From NCBI GenBank assembly GCA_965198115.1, contig OZ240241.1, forward strand, positions 288,001 through 352,000: a DNA stretch of 64,000 nt, written 5' to 3'. The DNA comes from Candidatus Latescibacterota bacterium. Its GTDB lineage: Bacteria > Latescibacterota > UBA2968. The notes under the pieces were generated by a model, which searched no databases, was not told the origin of the DNA, and was given only the letters and a program-made list of their open reading frames with translations. The translations under genes were made by a program, and so were the position numbers. Below are positions 35,022 through 52,783 of this stretch, piece after piece (the stretch's first letter is position 1; each line of letters starts with the position of its first letter).

Positions 35022-36443
35022 GGCTCTATCCGGGTTTCTCAACGGTGAAACTATAGAATGACAAGGTCATAGATCGTTCCCTACGCTTGGTTGTGTGTGT
35101 AGGACAATCAAAGCGAAGGGGGTGCGACCTATGACCGGGAGCAGATTACTATCGAAACTGCTGAGATTCAAGGGGTTCCGTGTTGTCAGCTGGTGGTTTG
35201 AGGGGAGAAGCTGTTTCGTCATCGCCGTAAAGCCACATAAGAATGGTTGTGTTGTTGTCCGGAGTGCGGCCGTCGAGGTAAAATCGTCCGCACAATGCCC
35301 CATCCGCGTCGGTGGCGTGACATTCCGGTGTGCGGGTGGAGGGTCTGGCTTCTCTACCATCCTCGGGAGATTCGGTGTCCTACCCACGGTCGTGTGGTCG
35401 AGGAGATTCCGTGGGCGGAGCGGTTCTCTCGGGTGACGTATCGCTTCGAGTATGCCATGCTGCGCTACTGCCAGACCATGACGCAGAAGGCGGCGTCCGA
35501 GTTGCTGCGCATCTCTGCCTCGACGCTGTCGGATCTCCTTCACCGATCCATCACGCGGCTTCGTGAAGGTCATCGTATCCGAGGGCTCAAAACCATCGGG
35601 ATCGACGAGATCTCCTACGCCAAGCGTCACAGGTACGCCACGCTCGTTTACGATCTGGACCGCTCCTGCGTGGTGTGGGTTGGCCGCGGCAGGGCGCGTA
35701 AAACGATCGATCGGTTCTTCACAGAGGCTCTCAGTCCCTACCAGAGATCCAAGATCGAGTGGGCCTGCTGCGACATGAGCGAAGCTTACATCGGAGCCAT
35801 CCAGGAACACTGTCCGAATGCCAAGCTGGTCCTCGATCGCTTTCACATCGTCAAGGCTCTCAATGCCGCCGTTGACGAGGTCCGTAAGGACCAGTGGCGT
35901 AAAGCTGCCCCGGATGAGCGCAAAGCCATGAAGGGCCTCCGATGGCTCCTCTACCGGCACTCAGCGACACGCTCCAGAGGGGATACTCGGACACTCAAAG
36001 CACTGGAGGAGGCGAACTACCGAATCTATAGAGCCTGGAGACTCAAGGACGAGTTCGAGCAGTTCTGGGAATACAAAGCGCCCTGGGCTGCCGAACGCTT
36101 CCTGAAATGCTGGACGACGTCCGCACTCAGAAGTCGACTTGAACCCCTGCGAAAGTTCGTCAGGACCCTGCGACAGCACTTCTTCGGCGTCCTCGCATTC
36201 GTGAACACGCGTCTTACCAACGCCATCGCCGAAGGCCTCAACCGAATCGTCCAAATCGTCAAGAACCGAGCCAGCGGATTCCGCACACTCGACGCATTCA
36301 ACGATATGATCTTCCTTACCGTCGGAGACATAAACATCCCTGAGCAGATTCCGAAGAGGTTCCGCACACTCTAACCGCGCCCCCATGCCAGGAACCACGG
36401 CACCTTCACCCACTTCATCTCGTTGAGAGATCCGGATATAGCC
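35022..36443 (+). mobile_element. ISL3-family element, copy 2, imperfect 8-bp TSD TTTTTAAT/ATTTTAAT
   Basis: Same IRs as copy 1, inverted orientation; lies 13 bp upstream of the GYF gene start. Confidence 0.9.
35131..36374 (+). CDS. ISL3 transposase (two extra bases near 35250)
   Basis: Near-identical to copy 1; 1244 nt = 1242+2. Confidence 0.88.
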
Positions 36444-36551: not shown

Positions 36552-37385
36552 CTATTGGAGACCGAGGACGCGGCCGTAGATTTCGGTGGCGCGCATTCGG
36601 ACGGTGAGGTCGGGGTCGCCCTGCATAGCGGAGGCGAGGAAGGGGAGACCGGCGCGGTCGCGAACGAGGCCCAGAGACTTGACGACCTCGAGACGAACGC
36701 TCGTGTTTTTCTCGACACCGGCGACCAGGGCTTCACCCAGTACACTGGCGACCTGACGTTCCTTCTTGCCGATTTCGCCGAGCGCGTCGGCAGACGACAT
36801 TCGGATGGTGAAGTCACGGTCGTTGAGAAGGGCTTCGTGGAGGGGTTGCACGCTGAACTGCGTGCCGATCTTGCGGAGCATACGAACAGCCTCGAGGCGC
36901 ACACCCAGATCGCCGTCGTTGCGGAGCGCCTCCTGAATGTAGGGGACGGCGAAGACGGTGCCGGCGTAACGCAGGGCTTCGACGGTCCGCATTCGCACGG
37001 TGACGTCCCGGTCTCGGAGCGAGATGCCGAGCGTCTCGAGCGCTTGACGGCCCCCGATGTCACCCAGCCCCTTGGCCGCTTCGGAGCGAACGGCCGCGGA
37101 TCGCTCGAGATCGTCGTCGACGGCTCTTCGAAGAAGAAGGGCGGCCATAGGACCTCCGACGAGCGCGAGTGAATGAACGGCCTTGATACGGACGGCCTCT
37201 TCGCGAGCGTCGAGCTGGGCGAACAGGGGACTCAGTTCCTGAGGATAGCTGCCGGCCGTGACGATGGTTTGATACTTTTCCACCGTCTCCTGGTTCAGGT
37301 TGTCCATCTGGGTCGGCTGCTGGGCTCGGATGGTTGTCGCACTCAGGAGGACGACGATGAGGATGGGGAACGATTTTCCGATCAT
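36552..37385 (-). CDS. Exported HEAT/PBS-lyase repeat protein
   Basis: Signal peptide; repeats of LxxALxNDxDxxVRxxAAxALGxIG. Confidence 0.82.
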   Translation of the reverse strand: MIGKSFPILIVVLLSATTIRAQQPTQMDNLNQETVEKYQTIVTAGSYPQELSPLFAQLDAREEAVRIKAVHSLALVGGPMAALLLRRAVDDDLERSAAVRSEAAKGLGDIGGRQALETLGISLRDRDVTVRMRTVEALRYAGTVFAVPYIQEALRNDGDLGVRLEAVRMLRKIGTQFSVQPLHEALLNDRDFTIRMSSADALGEIGKKERQVASVLGEALVAGVEKNTSVRLEVVKSLGLVRDRAGLPFLASAMQGDPDLTVRMRATEIYGRVLGLQ

Positions 37386-38125
37386 GGTTGAATTTCGATG
37401 CGATCCACGCACTTGACGTTGGCACAGCGGTCATCGCCGCCGGGTATGAACAGTCTGATGGGACCGCCAAAACGAGCCGGAAGTGGCCCGTTATCTTGCT
37501 TGAAAACGAGAAACCCGTCAAATCGCGCCTGTTTGAACGAAACTTCAGCCGAAAAGTCGCTTCCGGACCGGAAAACGAGGCTTCCCTCGTGGTTGGTGTA
37601 GCCGATGTGATCCAGCAAAACGCGGACCGGCAAGGCCTCGCCCTGTCGTCCTGCGACCCTGGCGCCGATGTCGGGCAGATGGTCGGGGAGAGCGTCCAGG
37701 TCGCCGTAGGCGAACCCGTGCTCCCGGCCGTCTGCACCGACCATGGTTAGGATCGGCATCTCCGGGGTTCGGCTCGACTCCGCCGCAGCCGTCATGACGC
37801 GCTCTTCGGTCACTTCGGCGATGCGACGGTCGTAGCCGACGGGTGCGGCCAGGGTCAGCGTCGTATTCGGGTGACGCGCACTGCCGGCTTGGAGCGCTTC
37901 CTCGAGCAGGGTCTGTTCCCCGGGCAGGAGTTGGAGAAAGAACGGCAGTAGGACGATCGGCTCGGCTTCGGTGGTGGACATCTTGTCGAGCACAGTTGGA
38001 AGGCACTTGTGGAGTTCCTCGATCAGGACGTGTGCGACCCGAAACGAGGTGAGCGCCTGGACGGTCTGATTCAGCGGAGGGTCGTCCCGACGGCTCACGA
38101 TGATGACGGCGGGTTTTGAGGACAT
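37382..38125 (-). CDS. CbiX/SirB-like domain fused to a sulfite-oxidase-type molybdopterin-binding-like domain
   Basis: IVLLPFFL...LAAPVGYDRRIAEVTEERV; C-term FKQDNGPLPARFGGPIRLFIPG...NVKCVDRIEI. Confidence 0.65.
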   Translation of the reverse strand: MSSKPAVIIVSRRDDPPLNQTVQALTSFRVAHVLIEELHKCLPTVLDKMSTTEAEPIVLLPFFLQLLPGEQTLLEEALQAGSARHPNTTLTLAAPVGYDRRIAEVTEERVMTAAAESSRTPEMPILTMVGADGREHGFAYGDLDALPDHLPDIGARVAGRQGEALPVRVLLDHIGYTNHEGSLVFRSGSDFSAEVSFKQARFDGFLVFKQDNGPLPARFGGPIRLFIPGGDDRCANVKCVDRIEIQP

Positions 38126-38574: not shown

Positions 38575-39411
38575 TTACACGGCCATTTCCGCCCGGATGG
38601 CGGGATGGCTCTCGTAGTCGACGAGCTCGAAGTCGTCGAAGACGAAGTCATCGATCTCGCTCTGACCCCGGTCGGCGATGTGGAGCGTTGGCAGTGGCAA
38701 AGGCTCGCGGCTCAACTGTTCGTCGACCGCGTCGAGGTGATTCAGGTAGATGTGCGCATCTCCGAGCGTATGGACGAACTCCCCGGGCGTCAGGACCGTT
38801 ACGCGGGCGACCATATGCAACAGGATCGCGTAGGATGCGATGTTGAGCGGGACGCCCAGAAACATATCGCAGGACCGTTGATACATCTGTAGCGAAAGTC
38901 GTCCATCGGCCACGTAGAACTGAAAAAAGTTGTGGCACGGTGGGAGCGCCACCTCGGTGAGGTCGATTTCGGCGGCGTTCCACGCGTTGACCATCATACG
39001 CCGCGACCCGGGGTCGTTGCGAATCAGATCGATGGCTTCCTGCAGCTGATCGACGACCTTTCCGTTTCCTCGCCACGCCCGCCACTGGACGCCGTAGATC
39101 CTGCCCATGCTCCCGTCATTCCCGTCGATGTTGAGCCGTTCGAGGTAGTCCTCGTAGTTTCCGTCCCACAGCTTGTTGTGAGCGTAGATCGATTTCAGAT
39201 CGTTGATGTTGTCGCTGCCCGACACGAACCAGAGCAGCTCGGACACCATCGATTTCCAGACGAGTTTCTTGGTCGTGACAGCAGGGAAGGTCTCGCTCAG
39301 GTCGTAGCGAGCTTGAAAGCCGAAGGCGGACAGCGTTCCGACACCGGTGCGATCTTCCTTCCGGACCCCGTGTTCACGGATATAGCGAAGCTGATCGAGA
39401 TAGGCGTGCAA
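38575..39411 (-). CDS. thyA: Thymidylate synthase
   Basis: DRTGVGT, TTKK, ELLWF, ALPPCH, YQRSCDMFLGVPLNIASY and GDAHIYLNH; start estimated at TTG 39411. Confidence 0.95.
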   Translation of the reverse strand: MHAYLDQLRYIREHGVRKEDRTGVGTLSAFGFQARYDLSETFPAVTTKKLVWKSMVSELLWFVSGSDNINDLKSIYAHNKLWDGNYEDYLERLNIDGNDGSMGRIYGVQWRAWRGNGKVVDQLQEAIDLIRNDPGSRRMMVNAWNAAEIDLTEVALPPCHNFFQFYVADGRLSLQMYQRSCDMFLGVPLNIASYAILLHMVARVTVLTPGEFVHTLGDAHIYLNHLDAVDEQLSREPLPLPTLHIADRGQSEIDDFVFDDFELVDYESHPAIRAEMAV

Positions 39412-39449
39412 GAGAAGCTCTCGGTAGGGTGAAGGTGAACCTTGGGGAG

Positions 39450-39917
39450 TTACCCGGTCTTGCGATGGTATTCGACACAACGGAATTCGGGATGGTCATC
39501 TTCGTGGACGACGTCCCAGTCCGATTCGTCGAAGTCGGGAAAGTGGGTGTCGCCCCGGTAGTCGCCCTTAACGTAGGAGAGGATCATGCGATCGGCAAGC
39601 GGGAGGGCCTGATCGTAGATCTGGCCTCCGCCCATTACGAAGACTTCGCGACCGTAGGTTGCCGCTTGCGTGAGGGCCTGTTCGAGAGACGGACAGACGT
39701 CGACACCGACGATCGGTTCGAGTGTGCGACTGACGACGACGTGGGGCCGGTGCGGCAACGGCTTCGAACCGATGGATTCGAACGTCTTTCTTCCCATGAC
39801 GAGCGTTCCCTTCTGCGTCGTTCGGAAGAAGTGAGCAGACTCCGTTTTGATTTTCCACGGCATGTCGTTGTCGCGTCCGATGACTCGATCCTTCGTCATA
39901 GCGGCGATGATGGTCAT
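39450..39917 (-). CDS. folA: Dihydrofolate reductase
   Basis: VIGRDNDMPW, VMGRKTFESIG, PLPHR, VMGGGQIY and GDTHFP. Confidence 0.93.
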   Translation of the reverse strand: MTIIAAMTKDRVIGRDNDMPWKIKTESAHFFRTTQKGTLVMGRKTFESIGSKPLPHRPHVVVSRTLEPIVGVDVCPSLEQALTQAATYGREVFVMGGGQIYDQALPLADRMILSYVKGDYRGDTHFPDFDESDWDVVHEDDHPEFRCVEYHRKTG

Positions 39918-41275
39918 CGGACGGGACCCACGGGTTCGACGGCGATGAGAGAGGACGGTGCAGCCTTCTCGACGCGCAGGATGCGGCCATACAGATCGTA
40001 GCCGGACGCGTCGGTGATCTCGGCTTCCACGAAGGTGCCCGTCTCGCCCTCCCCGGTGAGAAAGACGGCTCCGTCGATTTCGGGCGCGTCCATCCGGGTG
40101 CGACCGATCCAATCCACGCCTGCAGTCTGCCCGGGCTCGTCGATCAGGACACGAAATCGCGTCCCAATGTGTCCGAGGTTCGTTTCGGTCGCGATTTCCT
40201 CCTGGAGCGCCGTGACGCGGGCCATTCGCTCCTGTTTGACGTCTTCGGAGACATCATCCTCCAGATCGCCGGCGGCGGTGTTCTCCTCGTGCGAGTAGGT
40301 GAAGCCGACGAGTCGGTTGAAGCGCACGTCCTCGAGGAATCCGAGAAGCTCTTCGAACCGGGCCTCGGTTTCGCCGGGATAACCGACGATGACGGAGGAC
40401 CGGATGGTCAGGTCGGGGACGGCGTCGCGTAGTCGCTTGACGAGCGACTCGATGGCGTTTCGTGTCGTGCCACGATTCATCGATCGGAGGATGGTGTCAT
40501 CCGCGTGTTGGATCGGCATGTCGACGTAGGCACACAGCTTAGGTTCGCTGGCGAGGAGCTCGACGAGGTCGTCACGCCAACCGGTCGGGTAGGTGTAGAG
40601 CAGACGGATCCATTCGATGCCGTCGACGGCGACGAGTTTTCTGAGAAGCTCGACGAGCCGTGGGCTTCCGTAGAGGTCGGTGCCGTAACGCATCGTGTCC
40701 TGGGCGATGAGCGCGAGCTCTCGACATCCGTGGGCAGCCAGGCGGTGGGCCTCGGCGACGAGTCGTTCGATTGAGAGGCTGGCGTGAGGGCCCCGGATGC
40801 CCGGGATGGCGCAGAATGCGCACGTTCGGTCGCAGCCGTCGGCAATGCGTAAGTAAGCCCAGTGCGCGGGTGTGTGTAGGTGCCGGGCGTCGAGTGCTTT
40901 GAGAGGACCTTCACGACGTCGTCCGAGCAACCGGTCGCAGTGCTCGACGATGCGCGACTCTTCAGCCAGTCCGATGATGAGGTCGGCCTCGGTCAGTTCG
41001 TCCCGGAGTTCGGTGTTGTATCTCTGGGCGAGACACCCTGTCACGATCAGACCCCGGCACCTGCCGTCGCGCTTGAAGTCGGCTGCATCCAAAGCTGTCG
41101 AGATCGACTCTTCCTTGGCCGGCTGGATGAAGCCGCACGTGTTGACGACGATGACGTCGGCCTCGTCGGGTCGCTCGGAGACGGCATAGCCGTTGAGCTC
41201 CAGGAGCCGGTGCATGTGCTCGGAATCGACCGTGTTTTTGGGGCATCCGAGCGTGATGATGCTGACGATGTCCAT
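39914..41275 (-). CDS. rimO: Ribosomal protein S12 methylthiotransferase
   Basis: LGCPKNTVDSE, NTCGFI, GCLAQRY, CDRTCAFCAIP and TRAM domain with DAPEIDG. Confidence 0.93.
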   Translation of the reverse strand: MDIVSIITLGCPKNTVDSEHMHRLLELNGYAVSERPDEADVIVVNTCGFIQPAKEESISTALDAADFKRDGRCRGLIVTGCLAQRYNTELRDELTEADLIIGLAEESRIVEHCDRLLGRRREGPLKALDARHLHTPAHWAYLRIADGCDRTCAFCAIPGIRGPHASLSIERLVAEAHRLAAHGCRELALIAQDTMRYGTDLYGSPRLVELLRKLVAVDGIEWIRLLYTYPTGWRDDLVELLASEPKLCAYVDMPIQHADDTILRSMNRGTTRNAIESLVKRLRDAVPDLTIRSSVIVGYPGETEARFEELLGFLEDVRFNRLVGFTYSHEENTAAGDLEDDVSEDVKQERMARVTALQEEIATETNLGHIGTRFRVLIDEPGQTAGVDWIGRTRMDAPEIDGAVFLTGEGETGTFVEAEITDASGYDLYGRILRVEKAAPSSLIAVEPVGPVR

Positions 41276-41463
41276 CGATGGTGAAAGAATCGGATGTCGG
41301 TGACGTTGTGTCAAGGCATCGAGGATCGAGAATCGAGAATTGAACGAATGCTCGGGCGCCGGGACATTGTGATTGCGCGGGTGGATGCGACCTGCTACTT
41401 TTCCGCAGTGCTGATGGGTCGCCTGGGTTCCGCCCGGGCGTTTTTATTGATCGGTGAGATGAC

Positions 41464-43590
41464 GTGGATTTCGTTCAGAGCAGACGCTTTCTCGATACGC
41501 TTCCCGACTGGGAGACGGGTCGGCCGCCGAAGGGGCCGATCGAAGACTACCTCCCCCGCGAGCGGGCCTTACTCGCTCGATTGGGAAACCCGGAGCGTGC
41601 TTTTCGGTCGGTGATCGTTGGCGGGACGAACGGGAAAGGCACGACGGGCAGTTTTATCGCCGCGCTGGCACAGGCCGCCGGTCGAAGGGCTGGATTCTAC
41701 AGCTCCCCACACCTCCATTCGGTGCGCGAACGAATCCGACTGGATGGGGAGCCGGTGTCGCGTGAGGTGTGGGCGGAGGGAGTCGCTCGCATTCGGGACG
41801 CGACGGTCGGGTTCGAGGACGAGGGGGTCGGGGAATTCTCCAAGTTCGAGGCGATGACGGCGCTCGCCGCGTTGCTGTTCCACGAAGCAGACGTGGATGT
41901 GGGGGTGTTCGAGGTTGGGCTGGGAGGGCGATACGATTCGACGAACGCGTGGGACCACGAGGTTTCGGTTCTGACCGCGATCGACCTGGATCACGTCGAC
42001 TATCTGGGAACCACCCTGGGCGAAATCGCCCACGACAAGGTCCACATCGGACGTCGGGGGCGACCGCTCTACACGATGACGAACCAGCACGCGCTCGTTC
42101 GGGAGGCCATCGAGGAACGACGAGCAGAGATCGGGTTCGACCTGCGCTGGGTGTCGGCGGACGAGCAAGACGACCTTCCGGCGAGTGGAGCCCGGCGACC
42201 TCGCGTTTTTTGTGACAATGTCTGCCTCGCGCAGGCGGTGGCTGCGGATCTGTTCGACGTTACAGATGTGTCGGTCGCACGCGCGCTCGAGCTGCACGAC
42301 TGGCCAGGTCGATTCGAAGTCGTGCGGACCGTGCCGCCCATCGTACTGGACGGTGCTCACAATCCGGCCGCCGCTACCGAACTCGTGAACAGTCTACGAC
42401 GCACGGCGCCCGGGTGGCAGTTCGTCGTCGGAGGCGCCGTTGGTCACGACGCGCGCGGCTTGATAGAGGCGCTGATGCCGATCGCGGAGGGTTTTTACTT
42501 GACACGTTCGGATCATCCCAAGGCGTTGCCGGCTTCGGACCTCGTTCCCTACACCGGGAAGACGCCCCACCATCTGTTGCCGCCGGGCGTCGAGAGTCTG
42601 CGATCCTTCCTCCGCGCGGTCGACCGGCCGACCTGCGTGACGGGTTCGCTGCACCTCGTGGCACAAGCGCGACGGGCCCTCGACTTGCCCGCGGAGCTGG
42701 ACGGGATTACCGAGGATGTGTTGCTCGAATCTTTGGCCTGTTTGGCTCTGGCGGCAGAGGAGGAGGGTTTCGGGCTGGAGGCCGCGTCCGAAGACGGGAA
42801 TGTTCTTGTGATTCGCGGACTGCATCGACCGACGTATTTCCTGAGAAACAAGCATCCCTTCAACGATTACGTCACGGCGCGTCTCGCGGAAGACAAGGCC
42901 TATCAGTATGAACTCTTCACGGCGGCAGGTCTGCCAGTTCCCCTATCTATGAAGGTGTTCAACCCGCTCGCAGACGAACGTTTTCACCGCTATCGCACAC
43001 ATTCGTCCGTAGAGGATGCGCTGAGCGACGTGGAGGACCGGTTCAGTTACCCTGTGGTCGTCAAACGCAATCAGGGTTCGATGGCCCAGGGTGTTTACCT
43101 CGAGTTGAACCGCCAAGGGCTGCGTGCGCGTCTCACTCAGCTGTTCGAGTCGAGCGGGTTGTTTCAGAACGTTATTCTCGTCCAGGCTTACGTACCGGGT
43201 TCGGAGTATCGGGCCGTCGTCGGCGAAGGCAGGTTGTTGCTGGCGTATGAAAAGCAGGGCCCGATCGAAGAAGAAGACACCGACGATCTGAATCCCCTGC
43301 ACCACCAGGGTGGTCGGGCTGTGCGTGTCGAGGACGGGAATCTCCTCAAGGCCTTAGGGGAGATTGCCGAATCCTTGTATGAGGTCCTTCCCCTCGGATT
43401 TTGCGCGATCGATCTGATTGCAGGGGTGGATGGACTCGTAATTCTGGAGGTCAACCCCAACCCGGTCTGCTTCTTTTATAACACGGAATATGGCCGGGAG
43501 GACTTCGTGCGTATCTATCGTGATCTGCTGCGTCGACACCTGGCGACCAACGCACTGAACCTGGTTTCCGTGCGGTCGGATCAGGCGTGA
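41464..43590 (+). CDS. folC: Folylpolyglutamate synthase fused to a C-terminal ATP-grasp domain
   Basis: GTNGKGTT, SSPHL, RERI, EVGLGGRYDSTN, DLDH, WPGRFE and LDGAHN; then AEDKAYQYELF, YPVVVKRNQGSMAQGV, LVQAYV, EYR and IDLI...ILEVNPNP. Confidence 0.88.
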   Translation: MDFVQSRRFLDTLPDWETGRPPKGPIEDYLPRERALLARLGNPERAFRSVIVGGTNGKGTTGSFIAALAQAAGRRAGFYSSPHLHSVRERIRLDGEPVSREVWAEGVARIRDATVGFEDEGVGEFSKFEAMTALAALLFHEADVDVGVFEVGLGGRYDSTNAWDHEVSVLTAIDLDHVDYLGTTLGEIAHDKVHIGRRGRPLYTMTNQHALVREAIEERRAEIGFDLRWVSADEQDDLPASGARRPRVFCDNVCLAQAVAADLFDVTDVSVARALELHDWPGRFEVVRTVPPIVLDGAHNPAAATELVNSLRRTAPGWQFVVGGAVGHDARGLIEALMPIAEGFYLTRSDHPKALPASDLVPYTGKTPHHLLPPGVESLRSFLRAVDRPTCVTGSLHLVAQARRALDLPAELDGITEDVLLESLACLALAAEEEGFGLEAASEDGNVLVIRGLHRPTYFLRNKHPFNDYVTARLAEDKAYQYELFTAAGLPVPLSMKVFNPLADERFHRYRTHSSVEDALSDVEDRFSYPVVVKRNQGSMAQGVYLELNRQGLRARLTQLFESSGLFQNVILVQAYVPGSEYRAVVGEGRLLLAYEKQGPIEEEDTDDLNPLHHQGGRAVRVEDGNLLKALGEIAESLYEVLPLGFCAIDLIAGVDGLVILEVNPNPVCFFYNTEYGREDFVRIYRDLLRRHLATNALNLVSVRSDQA

Positions 43591-43698
43591 ACGGTCGGAT
43601 CGGCGGGATGCGCTTTGTGCCCCTACCTGCGCGATGCCGTCACCCCGGGCAAACCCTGAGCCGGGTGTGTCATCCTGGCTGACTATGTGGAGGTTGCT

Positions 43699-44442
43699 AT
43701 GAATCGAATAGGCTGGATGATCCGATTGTCCGCTCTGACGCTCGGTCTGATCGCTGCGTCTGGCTCTGCCCACGCCCAGAGCGAGTTCATCGTTTTCAAG
43801 GCGAAAATCCCGTTGGATACGGGCGCAGCGGTGCCCGACTCCGCCAGGCAAAACGACTTTTACATCAAGATCGGCACCGATCGGGGCATCCAGATCGGCA
43901 TGACGATGAACGTCTATCGCGACCACATCGTGGAAGCCGATATCGGCAGCATCACGTTCAAGACGACGCAGTTCATCGGACGGGTTCGTGTGTATGATGC
44001 GCAGCAGGATATGTGCGTCGGTCGCGTGATCGAGCTGGCCTCTCACGGCGATCCCCACCTGGACCGAACGGCCGTGATGATGGGGGACTATGTTCAGCCC
44101 GTGTTCGTCGTGTCCTCGGAGAATCTGTTCGACAAGGGGAGCAGCACGCTCCGTCCCGAGGCGATTCGGGAGCTCGACCGGGCGATCGCCTTTATCAAGC
44201 GGTTCAGACCGATCAAAGTGCGTGTGGAGGGTCACACGGACAGCGAAGGTCCCGATGACGTAAACATGCGGCTGTCTGAAAATCGCGCGGCTAGTGTGAA
44301 GGCGTATCTGGTCAGCCAGGGCGGTATTGCCGAAACCGTGCTGATTCCGGTCGGCTACGGTGAGCAAAAGCCGATCGCCTCGAACGATACGCCCGAGGGC
44401 CAGCGCAAGAACCGGCGGTTCGAAATCGTGATTGAGCAGTAG
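43699..44442 (+). CDS. Exported OmpA-family peptidoglycan-binding protein
   Basis: Signal peptide; VEGHTDSEG, NMRLSENRA, GYGEQKPIASN and NRRFEI. Confidence 0.88.
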   Translation: MNRIGWMIRLSALTLGLIAASGSAHAQSEFIVFKAKIPLDTGAAVPDSARQNDFYIKIGTDRGIQIGMTMNVYRDHIVEADIGSITFKTTQFIGRVRVYDAQQDMCVGRVIELASHGDPHLDRTAVMMGDYVQPVFVVSSENLFDKGSSTLRPEAIRELDRAIAFIKRFRPIKVRVEGHTDSEGPDDVNMRLSENRAASVKAYLVSQGGIAETVLIPVGYGEQKPIASNDTPEGQRKNRRFEIVIEQ

Positions 44443-46230: not shown

Positions 46231-49200
46231 TTACGTGCGTATGGCGCTCATGCGGTGGGTTCGCGTGTTGAACCGCTTGCCAGTCAGCAGCCGGGACAAG
46301 GTGTTGGACACGCGGAGGGTGATGCGGTTCCGTCCGTTCTTGAGGAAAGAGGATTTGCCTTCCCACGTGTAGGGGGACCACGGACGGACGCCGACGACGT
46401 GACCGTTGACGCTCAACTCGTAGACGTCGTCCGAATCGCGCAATTCTCGATCGAGGGTGACCGCGAAGCGGTCTAGTTTTGGCCGTTTGAGAGAGATTTC
46501 CTGTGTGTAGGCGACCGTTCCGGCGAAGAATGGCATTCGGTTATGGTCGAGATCTCCGAATGGACCTCGCTCGGGCAGTGCCCCGATGCGGTAGGCATCG
46601 GATCTCCACTTGCGGACGCCGAATTTTCCGAAGAGGTAGAAGGCGTCGACGAGCCCGTCGGAGAGTTTCGACACCTCCAACCGAACCGCGATGACATTTT
46701 TGCCCTTGTTCACGCGACGCCCAAGTGCGCACGTGAGGTTGCTGTTGTCGTATCGAAACGTGGGTCGAAAAGCGTTGTTCGGGAGTCGGGAACCGTTCAC
46801 GAAGACCTGGTACTCCCCGAGGATGGCACTGCGGTCGAGGACAAGAGACAACTTGCTCGGTACGATGTCGGCCTGGAACGTGGAGCGATACCAGACGACG
46901 AGGGGCAGTTCGACCTCGGGCTTTCCCTCCTCGTTAGCGTAGGTGAGGGGGACGTTCGTCTGGGAAACCGATCCCAATTGTTCTGAAAACAGAGCCGGTT
47001 CTACGGACGCCCATCGGCCGTCGTTTTGGCCGAGGGCTGCCCATCCATTCTTCGAACCACGGTCTTGCGGATCGATCTGCATCCGGAATCGGTCCAGACG
47101 CAGCGCATTGTCGGCCTCGGGATCGAGTCTCCAACTGCCTTCGAGCGACAGGTCGAGGGCGGCTGATTCCGGTAGCTCGACGTCCACTGATTCAGCTTTC
47201 GAGACGACCAGGAGGTGCGACGTATGCGCCTCAAAGCGGAGCTGCGTCGTCAAACGACCTCCCTCCGATTCGGTCGGGAGGGGTTTTCGAGCCCCAGTTT
47301 CGAGGTCCCACCGCTCGATCGAGTAGCCCCGACCGGGGGTCGTGATGCCGACGCGTGCGTCGAATCCGAACGCGGCGGTGTTGGCGAGGAAGACGATGTG
47401 TTGATCGTCGTCGACCCGCTCCTGGCAAAGCACGGCTCCGGTCGCCCGCTTTTCGGTTTGAACGAAGACGGTGCGGGGGGAGACCTGGTCGAGGACCTTG
47501 CCGAGGGCGTGGGTGCCGTTGTTTTCGACGACGCAGCCCCCCGTGCGCACGAGATGGAGATTTCCCCGATTGACCAGGTGGACTCCGAGCTCGTGGCCCA
47601 TGTAGTCCTTGATCATGCGGCCGGCTTCCATATCGGACAGTTTGGAAATGGCCTCGACGATGGACGGGCCCTCCTGGATGTCTTCGATCGGGAGCAGGCT
47701 GACCGAAATCACGATGCCTTCGTTGTTGATGAAATCCCGAATGACCTCGAATGCATCCCGCTCCAGGTTGGTAATGGGAGGGATGACCACGACGTCGTAA
47801 ACGCAGTCTCCCAGGTGGATCTCACGTCCGCGCACTTTCCCTTGCGCGAGCATTGCAGGGTCGAGGCAATCGAAGCTGCGCCCCATACGCGGCAGGGCCT
47901 CGAGAATGGCCGCCCAATCGGATCTAAGACGCTCGGCCAGTTTTTCCTCGTCGCTGTCGAAGCCATTGTAACGCCAGGCCTGGCCGGGATGACCGAGATG
48001 GGCGATCAGGGAGGTCCCTGGTTCCAGCAGGGCGACCCGGCTGGCACGGGTTCCGGCGGTGAGCGCGTAGGTCAGCCGACCGACGTAGTCGCTGACGGAA
48101 CGGTAGGATTCCCAGTGCGGGCTCTGGTTGAACTGGGATGCGGACCCGTCGTGCTTGCGGAGGCCGTCGAGTGTGTAGGCGAACCCGTGGGGATTGAAGA
48201 CGTTGCACCCTTCGGCGGCAAGATGGTCGACAGCCGACTTGATGTCTTTGGCCGAAAGGGACCATCCTGCGCCCTGGCCGACGGTCGCGAAGACGCGTCC
48301 CGAACCGGTTTGACGCGCTGCGGAGGCCGCGAAAACGGGGTTGAGCCTCGGATCGGCGCACGCCCCGTCGGGCGATTCTGCGTGACCCTTTTCCGTGCCT
48401 CCCCTGATGCCGGCGATATGCCCCGCATCGAGGTGCGCGCTCCTGAACAGGGGCACATCGGTGGCGAAGGACAGCTTGTTGTCGGCCGCCCACTCCGCGC
48501 AGGTTCGATGGTAGCTGAGCCGCAGGAGTTCGCTCAACGTTTGGAAGTAGTCGTAGCGGATCCTTGCGGTGTTGGGACCGAAGGGGGTGATGAGGGCGGG
48601 CAACTGCGACACGAGATCGTAGCCGTTCCGCGCTCGGTAAGCGTCTGGCAGAAGGCTCGACCAGGGGAGGTGTCCGGGCGGATCCGTTTCGCGTGTCGTG
48701 TAGAATCCCTTGACCGTTTTGCCGGCGTGTTTGCCGGACAGTTCCACGTAGGGCTGGAACGTCGATCGAATGTACGTCAGGACGGCTTCGCGGCTGAGCG
48801 GATCGAAGTGGGTGCCGGTCTGATCGGGCCCCCTGACCTCCTGCTGGAGGAACACGATCACGCGCCAGCGTCCCGCCGGCGCCTTCCAGTAGAGTCGCTG
48901 AATCGGATCGTGGGTTTCGAACTGGAGGTCGAAGAAAGGCTGGTCTGCGGACGTGCGCCGGAGTCGCTGGGCCCGGTGATCGACGCCGATAAAGCCATCG
49001 ATCTCCTCGGTATCCTCCCAGAGGCTGCGATCGCGACGAAGAGGGACCGCAACGGCACGAAGAACCGTGGCCCAGGGCAGCTCGAGATCGACTTGTTGTC
49101 CCCCCTGGACGGTCGTTTCGCGGAAGGTCAGATACTGGGCCCGGTGGCGTGGCTCGGTCAAGACGACACGTCCGCCTGTCAAGCCTCGCGCGTGGGGGAA

Positions 49201-49455
49201 AGCGTCGTGAAACCAGACGTGAAGGTCGTTCTGGCTGGCCGTTTCGACCGCGAGCGTGACACGATCGAACCAGATCTTTGACAGGTAGGGGATTCGGAGC
49301 CCGGCCCCGGCGGCAATGACGAATCCACCGACCCCCTTGTCGGCCATTTCGCGAATCTGGCGGACGAGTTCGGCTTCTTCGATATTCCCGTTCCAGAACC
49401 AGAACGGTGCCGGTCGACAGGCGCCCGGCGGGTTTTCGAATGTCTTAGGGTTCAT
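46231..49455 (-). CDS. GH106 (alpha-L-rhamnosidase)-like large protein, acidic motifs apparently degenerate
   Basis: RPAPFWFWNG...QIREMADKGVGGF, YLSKIWF, IRYDYFQTLSEL and HGFAYTLDGLRKHD; C-terminal GNRITLRVSNTL sugar-binding fold. Confidence 0.78.
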   Translation of the reverse strand: MNPKTFENPPGACRPAPFWFWNGNIEEAELVRQIREMADKGVGGFVIAAGAGLRIPYLSKIWFDRVTLAVETASQNDLHVWFHDAFPHARGLTGGRVVLTEPRHRAQYLTFRETTVQGGQQVDLELPWATVLRAVAVPLRRDRSLWEDTEEIDGFIGVDHRAQRLRRTSADQPFFDLQFETHDPIQRLYWKAPAGRWRVIVFLQQEVRGPDQTGTHFDPLSREAVLTYIRSTFQPYVELSGKHAGKTVKGFYTTRETDPPGHLPWSSLLPDAYRARNGYDLVSQLPALITPFGPNTARIRYDYFQTLSELLRLSYHRTCAEWAADNKLSFATDVPLFRSAHLDAGHIAGIRGGTEKGHAESPDGACADPRLNPVFAASAARQTGSGRVFATVGQGAGWSLSAKDIKSAVDHLAAEGCNVFNPHGFAYTLDGLRKHDGSASQFNQSPHWESYRSVSDYVGRLTYALTAGTRASRVALLEPGTSLIAHLGHPGQAWRYNGFDSDEEKLAERLRSDWAAILEALPRMGRSFDCLDPAMLAQGKVRGREIHLGDCVYDVVVIPPITNLERDAFEVIRDFINNEGIVISVSLLPIEDIQEGPSIVEAISKLSDMEAGRMIKDYMGHELGVHLVNRGNLHLVRTGGCVVENNGTHALGKVLDQVSPRTVFVQTEKRATGAVLCQERVDDDQHIVFLANTAAFGFDARVGITTPGRGYSIERWDLETGARKPLPTESEGGRLTTQLRFEAHTSHLLVVSKAESVDVELPESAALDLSLEGSWRLDPEADNALRLDRFRMQIDPQDRGSKNGWAALGQNDGRWASVEPALFSEQLGSVSQTNVPLTYANEEGKPEVELPLVVWYRSTFQADIVPSKLSLVLDRSAILGEYQVFVNGSRLPNNAFRPTFRYDNSNLTCALGRRVNKGKNVIAVRLEVSKLSDGLVDAFYLFGKFGVRKWRSDAYRIGALPERGPFGDLDHNRMPFFAGTVAYTQEISLKRPKLDRFAVTLDRELRDSDDVYELSVNGHVVGVRPWSPYTWEGKSSFLKNGRNRITLRVSNTLSRLLTGKRFNTRTHRMSAIRT

Positions 49456-50699: not shown

Positions 50700-51320
50700 A
50701 TGCCCAAGCAGATACACGCACTCGTGCTTGCCGCAGGATTGTCTCGCCGAATGGGCCGATTCAAGCAGTTGCTTCCGTTCGGCGGGCAAACGGTCGTCGA
50801 ATCCGTCGTTCAAGCTGTTCTGGACGGGGGCGTCGACGACGTTGTGGTTGTTTTGGGCCACCGGGCGGACGAGGTGCGGCAGGTTCTCGATCCGCTGGGG
50901 GTGACTGCGGTCGTGAATGAGTCTTATCGAGAGGGGATGTTCAGCAGTCTCCTGTGCGGGTTGGGCCAGATCCCGGGGACCGATGCGATCCTCCTTGCGC
51001 TGGGGGACCAGCCACAGATTTCTTCGACGACCGTGGCGAGGGTGATCCAAGCGTTTCGGACCGGAAATGCCGGGATCGTCGTGCCCGTTTACGGAGGGAA
51101 GCGGGGGCATCCGATCGTTTTCGATCTGCCACGATACCGAGACGAGATCGTCGGATTGTCCGGCGAAGAGGGCCTGAAACCGGTCGTACGTGGACACCCG
51201 GAGGACACACTCGAGATCACGATCGATGATGAACGGATACTGAGGGACCTGGATACACCCGAGGACTATCAACGCGAGCTCGCCGATAAGCGGAAAAACG
51301 AATCAGAGGATGCTTCATGA
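50700..51320 (+). CDS. mocA: MocA/MobA-like nucleotidyltransferase
   Basis: LAAGLSRRMGRFKQLL, EGMFSSL, LGDQP, RGHPIVF and DLDTPEDY. Confidence 0.8.
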   Translation: MPKQIHALVLAAGLSRRMGRFKQLLPFGGQTVVESVVQAVLDGGVDDVVVVLGHRADEVRQVLDPLGVTAVVNESYREGMFSSLLCGLGQIPGTDAILLALGDQPQISSTTVARVIQAFRTGNAGIVVPVYGGKRGHPIVFDLPRYRDEIVGLSGEEGLKPVVRGHPEDTLEITIDDERILRDLDTPEDYQRELADKRKNESEDAS

Positions 51321-52783
51321 ACGCGAAGCTGAACTACCGGAATCTGCAGGAGTTCATCCAGGCCATCGACGAAGCGGGCGAACTGAAGCGTATTTCGACA
51401 GAGGTCGACCCACATCTGGAGGTGACGGAGATCGCCGATCGCGTGATGAAACGACCTGGCGGTGGGGATGCGCTCCTGTTCGAGAACGTGAAGGGGAGCG
51501 CGATTCCGTTGGGGATCAACCTGTTCGGGTCGGCTCGCCGGATGGGGATGGCCCTGGGTGTCGAAGCGCTGGACGAGATCGGAGATCGTCTGTCGAGCAT
51601 GCTAAAGCTGGAGGTGCCCGATTCGTTAATGGGCAAGCTGGCAATGCTTCCGATGCTCAAAGAGCTGGCGAGCTTCCCGCCCCGTGCTGTGCGATCCGGG
51701 CCCTGCCAGGAAGTCGTGCTCCAAGGTGAGGATGTCGATCTCTCTACGCTACCGGTGGCTACGTGCTGGCCGGAGGACGGGGGACCTTACATCACACTAC
51801 CCCTCGTGATCACGAAGGATCCCGAAACGGGGATTCGAAACGTCGGGATGTATCGGATGCAGGTGATGGATCGGAACACGACCGCGATGCACTGGCAGCG
51901 TCACAAGGTGGGTGCACACCACTTCGAGCTGGCCAAGCGCAAGGGTGAACGGCTGGAAGTCGCCGTCGCCCTCGGGGGAGATCCGGCGACGGTCTACAGC
52001 GGGTCAGCCCCCCTGCCACCGGTCGTCGACGAGTTCATCTTCACCGGATTCCTCCGACGTCGGCCGATGGAACTCGTGAAGGCGGTGACGGTCGATCTCG
52101 AAGTGCCGGCCGAAGCGGAGATCGTGCTCGAGGGATATGTGGACCCGTCTGAAGATCTGATACGGGAGGGACCGTTTGGCGATCACACGGGATTCTACTC
52201 GCTCGCGGACGACTATCCTGCGTTTCACGTGACGGCTATGACGATGCGGCGGAATCCCGTCTACCCTACGACGATCGTGGGCAAGCCCCCGATGGAGGAC
52301 TATTATCTGGGCCACGCGACGGAACGGATTTTCCTGCCGCTGACTCGCCTGATACTGCCCGAAATTGTCGACTACCATATGCCGGCCGAAGGCATCTTCC
52401 ACAACCTTGTGTTCGTGTCGATCGACAAGGCCTACCCGGGTCACGCCTACAAGGTGATGAACGGGCTCTGGGGTGCGGGGCAGATGATGCTGGCCAAGGT
52501 CATCGTCATCGTCGACAAGGACGTGAACGTGCAAGACCCGCAAGAAGCCTGGTGGGTTGCCCTGAACAATATCGATCCCGAACGCGACATCCGATTCACG
52601 CCGGGCCCGGTCGACGTACTCGACCACGCCAGCAGCGCCTTCACGTTCGGAACGAAAATGGGCATCGACGCCACGAAGAAATGGCCCGAAGAGGGCTTCG
52701 ACCGCGAGTGGCCGGAGAAGATCGTGATGAGTGATGACGTCAAAGCGAAAGTCGATAGACTCTGGAGTTCTTTGGGACTTTAG
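51317..52783 (+). CDS. ubiD: UbiD-family decarboxylase (menaquinone/futalosine pathway type)
   Basis: INLFGS, RNVGMYRMQ, EGPFGDHTGFY, GKPPMED and KMGIDATKK. Confidence 0.88.
   Translation: MNAKLNYRNLQEFIQAIDEAGELKRISTEVDPHLEVTEIADRVMKRPGGGDALLFENVKGSAIPLGINLFGSARRMGMALGVEALDEIGDRLSSMLKLEVPDSLMGKLAMLPMLKELASFPPRAVRSGPCQEVVLQGEDVDLSTLPVATCWPEDGGPYITLPLVITKDPETGIRNVGMYRMQVMDRNTTAMHWQRHKVGAHHFELAKRKGERLEVAVALGGDPATVYSGSAPLPPVVDEFIFTGFLRRRPMELVKAVTVDLEVPAEAEIVLEGYVDPSEDLIREGPFGDHTGFYSLADDYPAFHVTAMTMRRNPVYPTTIVGKPPMEDYYLGHATERIFLPLTRLILPEIVDYHMPAEGIFHNLVFVSIDKAYPGHAYKVMNGLWGAGQMMLAKVIVIVDKDVNVQDPQEAWWVALNNIDPERDIRFTPGPVDVLDHASSAFTFGTKMGIDATKKWPEEGFDREWPEKIVMSDDVKAKVDRLWSSLGL

Follow-up and report, generated by a model that had tools for sequence, protein, structure and literature searches.

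A FolC–ATP-grasp fusion protein in a class of Latescibacterota: a candidate ligase for the folate tail

Folate tails are taught as γ-linked chains made by FolC/folylpolyglutamate synthase (FPGS), and the RimK-fold ligase MptN takes part in the glutamylation of a cofactor tail. FolC adds γ-linked Glu at the end of the chain (PMC1971073, PMC10861534); the first of these papers reports, citing Ferone 1986, α linkages in the distal tails of E. coli folate, and states that the CofE homolog CT611 replaces FolC in Chlamydia and complements E. coli folC. In some archaea, CofF puts a terminal α-Glu on F420 after the γ chain made by CofE (PMC8498797). ATP-grasp ligases convert a carboxylate to an acyl phosphate, which is then joined to an amine (PMC8141765). 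Here, we analyze a gene in a 64,000-nucleotide stretch of a Candidatus Latescibacterota genome (contig OZ240241.1, positions 288,001 to 352,000 of assembly GCA_965198115.1), referred to in the following as the window, to which all coordinates refer. The gene (41464..43590, + strand) encodes a FolC half fused to an ATP-grasp ligase domain. By analogy with CofF on F420, we give a probability of about one half to the reading that the ATP-grasp half adds an amino acid, probably α-linked Glu, to the γ-glutamyl tail of folate.

The gene is a single open reading frame (ORF) of 708 amino acids (aa), with a GTG start codon at 41464, a TGA stop codon at 43588-43590 and no internal stop. The AlphaFold model of the whole chain had a predicted local distance difference test score (pLDDT) of 88.8 and a predicted template modelling score (pTM) of 0.75. 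The first-pass annotation, an earlier note on this DNA, had described one intact 708-aa ORF, which was confirmed: in all 40 loci of relatives sampled for synteny (out of 55; two lacked upstream DNA), the fusion aligned whole and as a single piece, not as two separate genes. With the C-terminal domain as the query, matches were found in 56 of 61 genomes, every one of them in an open frame no shorter than 692 aa. Two runs, X1 and X2, each contributed one contig that spanned the fusion with 0 differences; the runs are from the same sample and may be the source of this DNA. The open frames in relatives, the one-piece alignments and the spanning contigs ruled out a frameshift or assembly artefact. 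No sigma-70-like promoter was found within 41150-41550.

The FolC half (aa 1-409, 41464..42690, + strand) has the dihydrofolate synthase/folylpolyglutamate synthase fold, with Foldseek TM(target) values of 0.75-0.84 to solved FolC/FPGS structures. It matched TIGR01499 over aa 32-404 with 264.5 bits, against a curated cut-off of 162.65, and is the single FolC match over the cut-off in the single-contig 8.4-Mb genome, where folP and folK were also found. The P-loop GTNGKGT (aa 54-60, 41623..41643, + strand), EVGLGG..D..N, D176-H177, K192, DGAHN and GSL all align with the E. coli, M. tuberculosis, L. casei and T. maritima enzymes, and we take these motifs, including D-H and its downstream Lys, to have the roles usual in FolC. 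In the P-loop, G54, N56, G57 and K58 are invariant in 88/88 homologs, as are E150, D158, D176, H177, K192, D296, H299 and G394. The segment S126-K-F-E129 is identical to SKFE of M. tuberculosis FolC, with E129 kept in 88/88; such a T/S-x-F-E segment is presumably the mark of bifunctional FolC enzymes that have dihydrofolate synthase (DHFS) activity. The claim that all FolC motifs are present held for these main motifs, but not for the D-K-D of the C-terminal domain, which is common in FolC without being universal. In the alignment to E. coli FolC, G-H-D is found in its place (aa 327-329, 42442..42450, + strand), with G327 and H328 in 88/88 homologs and D329 in 85/88. Since D-K-D also varies in other FolCs, for example those at loci L095 and L156 described below, G-H-D does not exclude FolC membership.

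The ATP-grasp domain (aa 410-697, 42691..43554, + strand) has the fold of RimK, ArgX and LysX, its N-terminal subdomain being shortened. It matched the hidden Markov model (HMM) PF08443 over aa 517-667 (31.1 bits, cut-off 21), so that each half of the protein scored above the cut-off of its own profile. AlphaFold modelled aa 410-694 with a pLDDT of 89 and a pTM of 0.88, and across its whole length the model matched ArgX (3VPB; Z 21.8, root-mean-square deviation 2.8, 243 residues aligned), LysX/ArgX (Z 21.1) and RimK (Z 20.1) as the closest solved folds, with ≈20% identity, bearing out the earlier description of a complete ATP-grasp domain. Residues K100, K141, R189, D248, E260 and N262 of E. 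coli RimK correspond to K478, K534, R583, D650, E662 and N664, all found in 88/88 homologs. By its fold and its ATP/metal residues, the domain falls within the ATP-grasp superfamily, and its catalytic residues are intact in the fusion with FolC.

Several segments of this domain, all on the + strand, set its family apart or tie it to RimK. The family motif RNKHPFNDY...EDK (aa 461-478, 42844..42897) has R461, N462, N467, D477 and K478 invariant in 88/88. An insertion of about 15 residues, NPLADERFHRYRTH (aa 500-513, 42961..43002), is family-specific and falls in a gap of the RimK alignment; its R506 is found in 88/88 sequences and R509 in 86/88. EYR (aa 581-583, 43204..43212), with R583 equivalent to RimK R189, the NPLH loop (aa 610-613, 43291..43302), which aligns with RimK R211-S-N213-L-H215, and D650 ... 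E662-V-N664-P-N-P (43411..43464) are each invariant in 88/88. The invariant basic residues that the family has of its own are R461, R506, R556, K597 and R678. The ATP-grasp motifs quoted in the first-pass annotation are present, with slightly different spacing; they actually read VVVKRNQGSMAQGV and AIDLIAGVDGLVILEVNPNP.

The domain was compared with the HMMs of described families. For RimK, TIGR00768 and NF007764 were considered, and the match to TIGR00768 reached 58-61 bits (58.2-61.2) against a cut-off of 143.4. MptN (NF040720) gave 19.3 bits against 350, CofF (TIGR04443) was not matched by the fused domain at E<=0.001, and cyanophycin synthetase, in which the ATP-grasp/Mur order is reversed, gave 51.8 bits against 850. 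Membership in these four families was rejected on these results. Two fused homologs, P0022 and P0103, carry the NCBI name "cyanophycin synthetase", which is probably a misannotation.

To describe the distribution of the fused domain, 153 genomes of the phylum were scanned. At E<=1e-75, the profile of the ATP-grasp family matched 117 of the 125 genomes in the source's class and 0/28 from other classes. By family, the matches were 31/31 in f1, which includes the source genome, 21/22 in f2, 65/69 in f3 and 0/3 in f4; an ordinary free folC was found in two of the three f4 genomes and in the other classes. Nearly all carriers have no FolC other than the fused one. Across 118 proteins, the median identity to the query was 50% in the FolC half and 56% in the ATP-grasp half. 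The ATP-grasp half had a median dN/dS of 0.13, compared to 0.20 in the FolC half, from the 113 of 741 pairs with a usable dS, which are not independent of each other. The ATP-grasp domain is under purifying selection. Covariation between the two domains was not enriched, with 26 pairs among the top 100 compared to a background of 48%, in an underpowered set of 117 sequences (effective number 69). Several homologs are named Candidatus Latescibacteria/Latescibacterota by NCBI, and two Gemmatimonadota. The fused-type FolC is duplicated in genome G051, while in G150 and G151 an ordinary folC accompanies the fused one. At G138:C24:15389-16729, a 490-aa FolC frame matches just the start of the ATP-grasp domain, reflecting either a truncation or a contig end.

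A profile search of 1.84 billion representatives yielded 123 proteins at E<=1e-30, mostly full-length at 260-300 aa, and profile–profile comparison between this free family and the fused domain gave an E of 2e-57. The fused domain belongs to an unnamed, patchy family of free-standing proteins of ≈275 aa. Members occur in 10 of 401 genomes of the candidate phyla radiation (CPR), 1 of 121 of the Caldithrix phylum and 17 of 251 cyanobacteria, and no match was found on plasmids. The wider free group has the motif GNLSPLHW, with an SPLH loop. The nearest free relatives, P0147-P0157, are the sister group to the fused clade, with an approximate likelihood ratio test (SH-aLRT) support of 99; neither the metagenome nor the viral scans gave loci for them, and longer forms, when searched for, were likewise not found, a result of little weight. 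Three of them (P0147, P0149 and P0151) have alike His/Gln/Ser-rich C-termini with H/R/P/L and S/C/Y exchanges, which may shadow a conserved gene on the opposite strand.

Gene neighbours of the free family were collected at 177 loci, comprising the best 80 of 320 genome matches, the best 80 of 141 metagenome matches and 17 fetched regions, with some duplicates. All 177 were screened by tblastn with folate-gene queries, and 35 and 88 selected neighbours were scanned with Pfam. Folate-type neighbours were found at eight of these loci. In three, folC directly adjoins the free member on the same strand, with a gap of ≈510 bp in Caldithrix (L138), 4 bp in the cyanobacterium G893 (L156) and 83 bp in a metagenome (L241). 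The three FolCs belong to separate lineages, with the long-branch G893 copy placed unsurely. In Symploca (L095), folC lies two genes upstream of the free member; in L070 and L071, a FolK-PabB gene is convergent with it; in L078, glyA-fhs is upstream and a 5-formyltetrahydrofolate cyclo-ligase gene convergent; and in L128, a CofE-like PF01996 gene is directly upstream. Single linkage gave 41 contexts, 39 of them with neighbours, and an assumed 1.5 folC per 4000 genes gave ≈0.03 expected cases of adjacent folC over these 39 contexts, compared to 3 seen, or a rough P of about 4e-6. For any folate-type gene within two genes, there were 6 events, with an equally rough P that ranges from 1e-4 to 4e-3 with the number of genes assumed. 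Kin are not independent in these estimates, and the true number of contexts is higher because the clustering merges unrelated events. The folC question had been fixed by the fusion before the loci were inspected.

A few of these loci have further peculiarities. At L070:3008-8186 (Amazonocrinis) and L071:3006-8114 (Nostoc sp. NIES-4103), three tandem paralogs of the free family face the gene for the FolK(HPPK)-PabB-type fusion. The Symploca genome (G155) has three folC copies and G893 has two, and in both the copy beside the ATP-grasp gene is the extra one; that of G893 is strongly diverged, with GGYND for GGRLD.

The fused FolCs form a clade with 100/100 support on a long branch. In a quick tree with the LG model, from which three non-FolC Mur ligases and the long-branch G893 FolC were left out, this clade joined the ATP-grasp-adjacent FolCs of Symploca and Caldithrix with a support of 93; a careful LG tree gave the same grouping at 64/63. 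On a 26-row subset, an approximately unbiased (AU) test did not reject shared descent with the FolC of the sister family f4 (p=0.10), and a mixture model did not distinguish vertical from replaced origin of the fused FolC.

In the proposed scheme, the FolC half would make dihydrofolate and a short γ-glutamyl tail, and the ATP-grasp half would activate the terminal carboxylate of that tail, then add an amino acid, probably α-linked Glu. The role at the folate tail is independently supported because free members of the family have folC or other folate genes for neighbours in unrelated bacteria. Also in its favour are the retention of the domain across the class, the purifying selection on it with its invariant catalytic residues, the closest solved folds, which are those of amino-acid or Glu ligases, and the α linkages reported for E. 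coli folate. The first-pass annotation had proposed a two-chemistry folate-tailing enzyme, and these neighbours support its link to folate. Other tailed cofactors, namely F420 and methanopterin, are not evident in the source genome from two marker families searched: of 61 relatives, one has a CofE-family match (PF01996), and the source genome has no match to this family or to Mch (PF02289). We infer folate as the carboxylate substrate, the α linkage and Glu as the amine; the α-Glu product is no firmer than this because the TIGR00768 cut-off was failed and RimK arginines lack a counterpart. Within the folate-tail reading, α-Glu is the somewhat likelier added residue, ahead of some other amino acid or amine. 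That the fusion and its free relatives make up a dedicated family of folate α-ligases, adding α-Glu or a non-Glu amino acid to folate tails, seems possible to us at somewhat less than even odds.

The first-pass annotation had also pointed to rimO, folA and thyA beside the fusion. The identities were right: rimO (39914..41275) scored 466 bits with TIGR01125, over the cut-off, folA (39450..39917), encoding dihydrofolate reductase (DHFR), matched PF00186, and thyA (38575..39453, start codon uncertain) was over the cut-off with TIGR03284 and NF002497. However, all three are on the − strand, and 188 bp separate the start of rimO from that of the fusion; folA and thyA lie behind rimO on the strand opposite to the fusion, and are therefore not in an operon with it. 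In the 40 loci, rimO is beside the fusion in 16/40, thyA in 15/40 and folA in 13/40, which makes the earlier argument from synteny weak. The block was largely rejected as functional evidence, since it is divergent and conserved in 16 of 40 loci at most; the rimO–fusion arrangement is probably the ancestral gene order. In three close relatives (loci L024, L025 and L026 of G001, G007 and G010), thyA follows straight after rimO, with no folA match between them.

Other genes in the window include one for an OmpA-domain protein (43687-44442, + strand) just downstream of the fusion, which recurs in 11/40 loci and is duplicated in tandem in four. A 247-aa ORF (37382-38125, − strand), found near thyA in several relatives, combines a weak CbiX-like region (20.7 bits, under the cut-off) with a molybdopterin-oxidoreductase-like domain. 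Farther out are a 375-aa ORF (35247-36374, + strand) that we take by eye to resemble an ISL3-type transposase, a GH106-like glycosidase (46231-49455, − strand), and a MobA-like nucleoside triphosphate transferase followed by a UbiD-family decarboxylase (50700-52783, + strand). At L280 and L281 of family f4, the ordinary folC is divergent from an ORF that, judged by eye from its N-terminus, presumably resembles fhs; Fhs itself had no match in the source genome by tblastn with a CPR Fhs query.

Several observations weigh against the folate-tail reading. RimK contacts poly-Glu via S7, R8, S14, R64, S68, R189 and N262 (PMC10092738), and a simulation study describes an arginine belt including R64, R96, R98, R102 and R189 (PMC10375531). 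By sequence alignment, which was not reliable at the positions of S7, R8 and S14, only R189 and N262 of the Glu-contacting residues are kept in the fusion; the R64/S68 segment is absent, R96/R98/R102 are replaced by L474/E476/Y480, and R211-x-N213 by L-N-P. Thus, the earlier term "RimK-like" is true of the fold and not of the family, whose cut-offs were failed. The sequence suggests that the ligase is active but has a substrate site of another kind, and that it is unlikely to be a RimK-type poly-α-Glu polymerase; because most of the belt is missing, long poly-α-Glu is less likely than a single cap, a short extension or the addition of a different amino acid. The neighbours are also mostly of other kinds, with 169 of 177 free loci lacking a folate-type one. 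The large Nostoc and Microcoleus groups (109 linked loci) have none, and five of five such cyanobacterial carriers scored keep a single ordinary folC elsewhere. Of ten CPR carriers, which are incomplete metagenome-assembled genomes, one has FolC and two have a CofE-like gene over the cut-off, so that most have no visible γ-ligase partner. Free members recur beside metG-X-tatD (L178 and L201; metG only in L206) and in a 7TM/ATP-grasp/RimK cluster (L172-L174), which points to peptide tagging. Beside the fusion itself, rimO, folA and thyA are all missing from the 15 loci of genus g4. The cluster at L172-L174 comprises 7TM_transglut, ATPgrasp_ST, a RimK-family gene and the free member, facing a MATCAP-like peptidase and beside rplL-rplJ-rplA.

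These observations fit an ATP-grasp domain that forms an amide on a small molecule or a peptide with no link to folate, and whose fusion to an adjacent folC happened once, the fusion being tolerated or giving constitutive expression. The patchy family, the CPR carriers without FolC, the replaced Glu-binding residues and the single fused clade, for which one event is enough, are all in its favour. We nevertheless consider it rather unlikely, since it leaves unexplained both the direct adjacency of folC in three unrelated FolC lineages, with three other folate-type contexts, and the retention of the domain in 117 of 125 genomes. If the substrate is folate, the labour might also be divided otherwise, with the FolC half adding the first Glu only, as a dihydrofolate synthase, and the ATP-grasp half building the whole tail in place of FPGS; by extension, free members would tail salvaged folate in CPR genomes that lack FolC. 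This scheme, extension included, agrees with the long branch of the fused FolC, its lower scores (about 250-300 bits, compared to 320-410 for full-length ordinary FolCs of the phylum), the change of D-K-D to G-H-D while the S-K-F-E...D158 segment stays, and a DHFR-family match over the cut-off in six of the ten incomplete CPR carriers, the only CPR genomes scored, compared to FolC in one. But the bearing of the conserved D-K-D motif is presumptive, the Nostoc and Microcoleus carriers retain an ordinary folC, and we regard the scheme as distinctly improbable.

The first-pass annotation had named modification of a ribosomal protein as its alternative, and this found little support. Here the domain would act on a protein C-terminus, such as that of ribosomal protein S6, in the manner of RimK. 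The fold, the acidic S6 tails and the adjoining rimO are consistent with it, as is the lack of another RimK-type gene in the source genome, where a second match lies in a carbamoyl-phosphate-synthase-like frame. Free members also adjoin rimK in L172-L174 and lie two genes from rpsF in L128 and L178. However, RimK needs an S6 substrate ending in Glu, and S6 does so in 11 of the 24 sequences parsed from the class (29 found, 5 not parsed), while that of the source genome ends in ...TEETA. RimO is a radical-SAM enzyme for S12, its gene is divergent and linked in 16/40 loci, and with the RimK belt missing and the family cut-off failed, we find this explanation more doubtful again. That the domain has lost its catalytic activity and serves only to regulate or scaffold FolC is the least credible of the explanations: the position of RimK E178, which we take to be the adenine-binding one, is A575 in the fusion and varies across the family, but none of the six catalytic or metal/ATP positions varies among the 88 homologs and the dN/dS is 0.13.

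Among the papers listed by literature searches, none dealt with the FolC–ATP-grasp fusion or its ATP-grasp family, and none assigned an enzyme to α-linked folate tails. The component folds are known, and the γ-then-α logic would have an archaeal precedent. The FolC-fused domain, with free relatives recruited beside folC several times, offers a concrete candidate family for α-linking or capping folate. If a dedicated family of folate α-ligases exists, one-carbon metabolism in a whole bacterial class, and in scattered cyanobacteria and CPR, would depend on folate whose tail is capped or of mixed linkage, and in some CPR genomes that lack FolC, salvaged folate would receive its tail from ATP-grasp chemistry alone. 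Such a cap would set the tail length, alter how hydrolases and folate enzymes recognize the cofactor, and have consequences for the cross-feeding of folate. Should the substrate be unrelated, the fusion would still be a lineage marker and a guide to an uncharacterised ATP-grasp family that is misnamed in databases.

Among known systems, the proposed activity resembles that of CofE with CofF or MptN, where a γ-glutamyl ligase acts first on the cofactor tail and an ATP-grasp ligase of the RimK fold second (PMC8498797 for CofE and CofF). The fusion differs in being one polypeptide with folate as the proposed substrate; it fails the MptN and CofF HMMs, and its genome lacks CofE and Mch. MyfA/MyfB are likewise ATP-grasp enzymes that build the Glu tail of a cofactor, methylofuran (PMC8141765), and are likened to the fusion by description, not sequence, in a genome without Mch. 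RimK, LysX and ArgX (TIGR00768; PDB 4IWX, 5ZCT, 3VPB, 5K2M) are the best structural matches (Z 20-22), and the equivalents of RimK K100, K141, R189, D248, E260 and N262 are kept, but at ≈20% identity the fusion is below the family cut-off and has a shortened N-terminal subdomain, an insertion of ≈15 aa and an NPLH/SPLH loop in place of R-S-N-L-H, with most of the arginine belt absent. With FolC (TIGR01499; PDB 1W78, 2VOR, 1O5Z), it shares the fold, the P-loop, EVGLGG..D..N, D-H..K, DGAHN, GSL and the T/S-x-F-E segment, and it is the only FolC of a genome with folP and folK; it differs by the C-terminal ATP-grasp domain of ≈290 aa, G-H-D for D-K-D, the long branch and an identity of ≈29% to E. 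coli FolC. CphA1 combines ATP-grasp and Mur-ligase folds, and both it and GshF resemble the fusion in having two ATP-dependent amide ligases in one chain; compared to the cyanophycin synthetase CphA1, of about 870 aa, the 708-aa fusion has the reverse domain order, and its Mur-type half is clearly a FolC.

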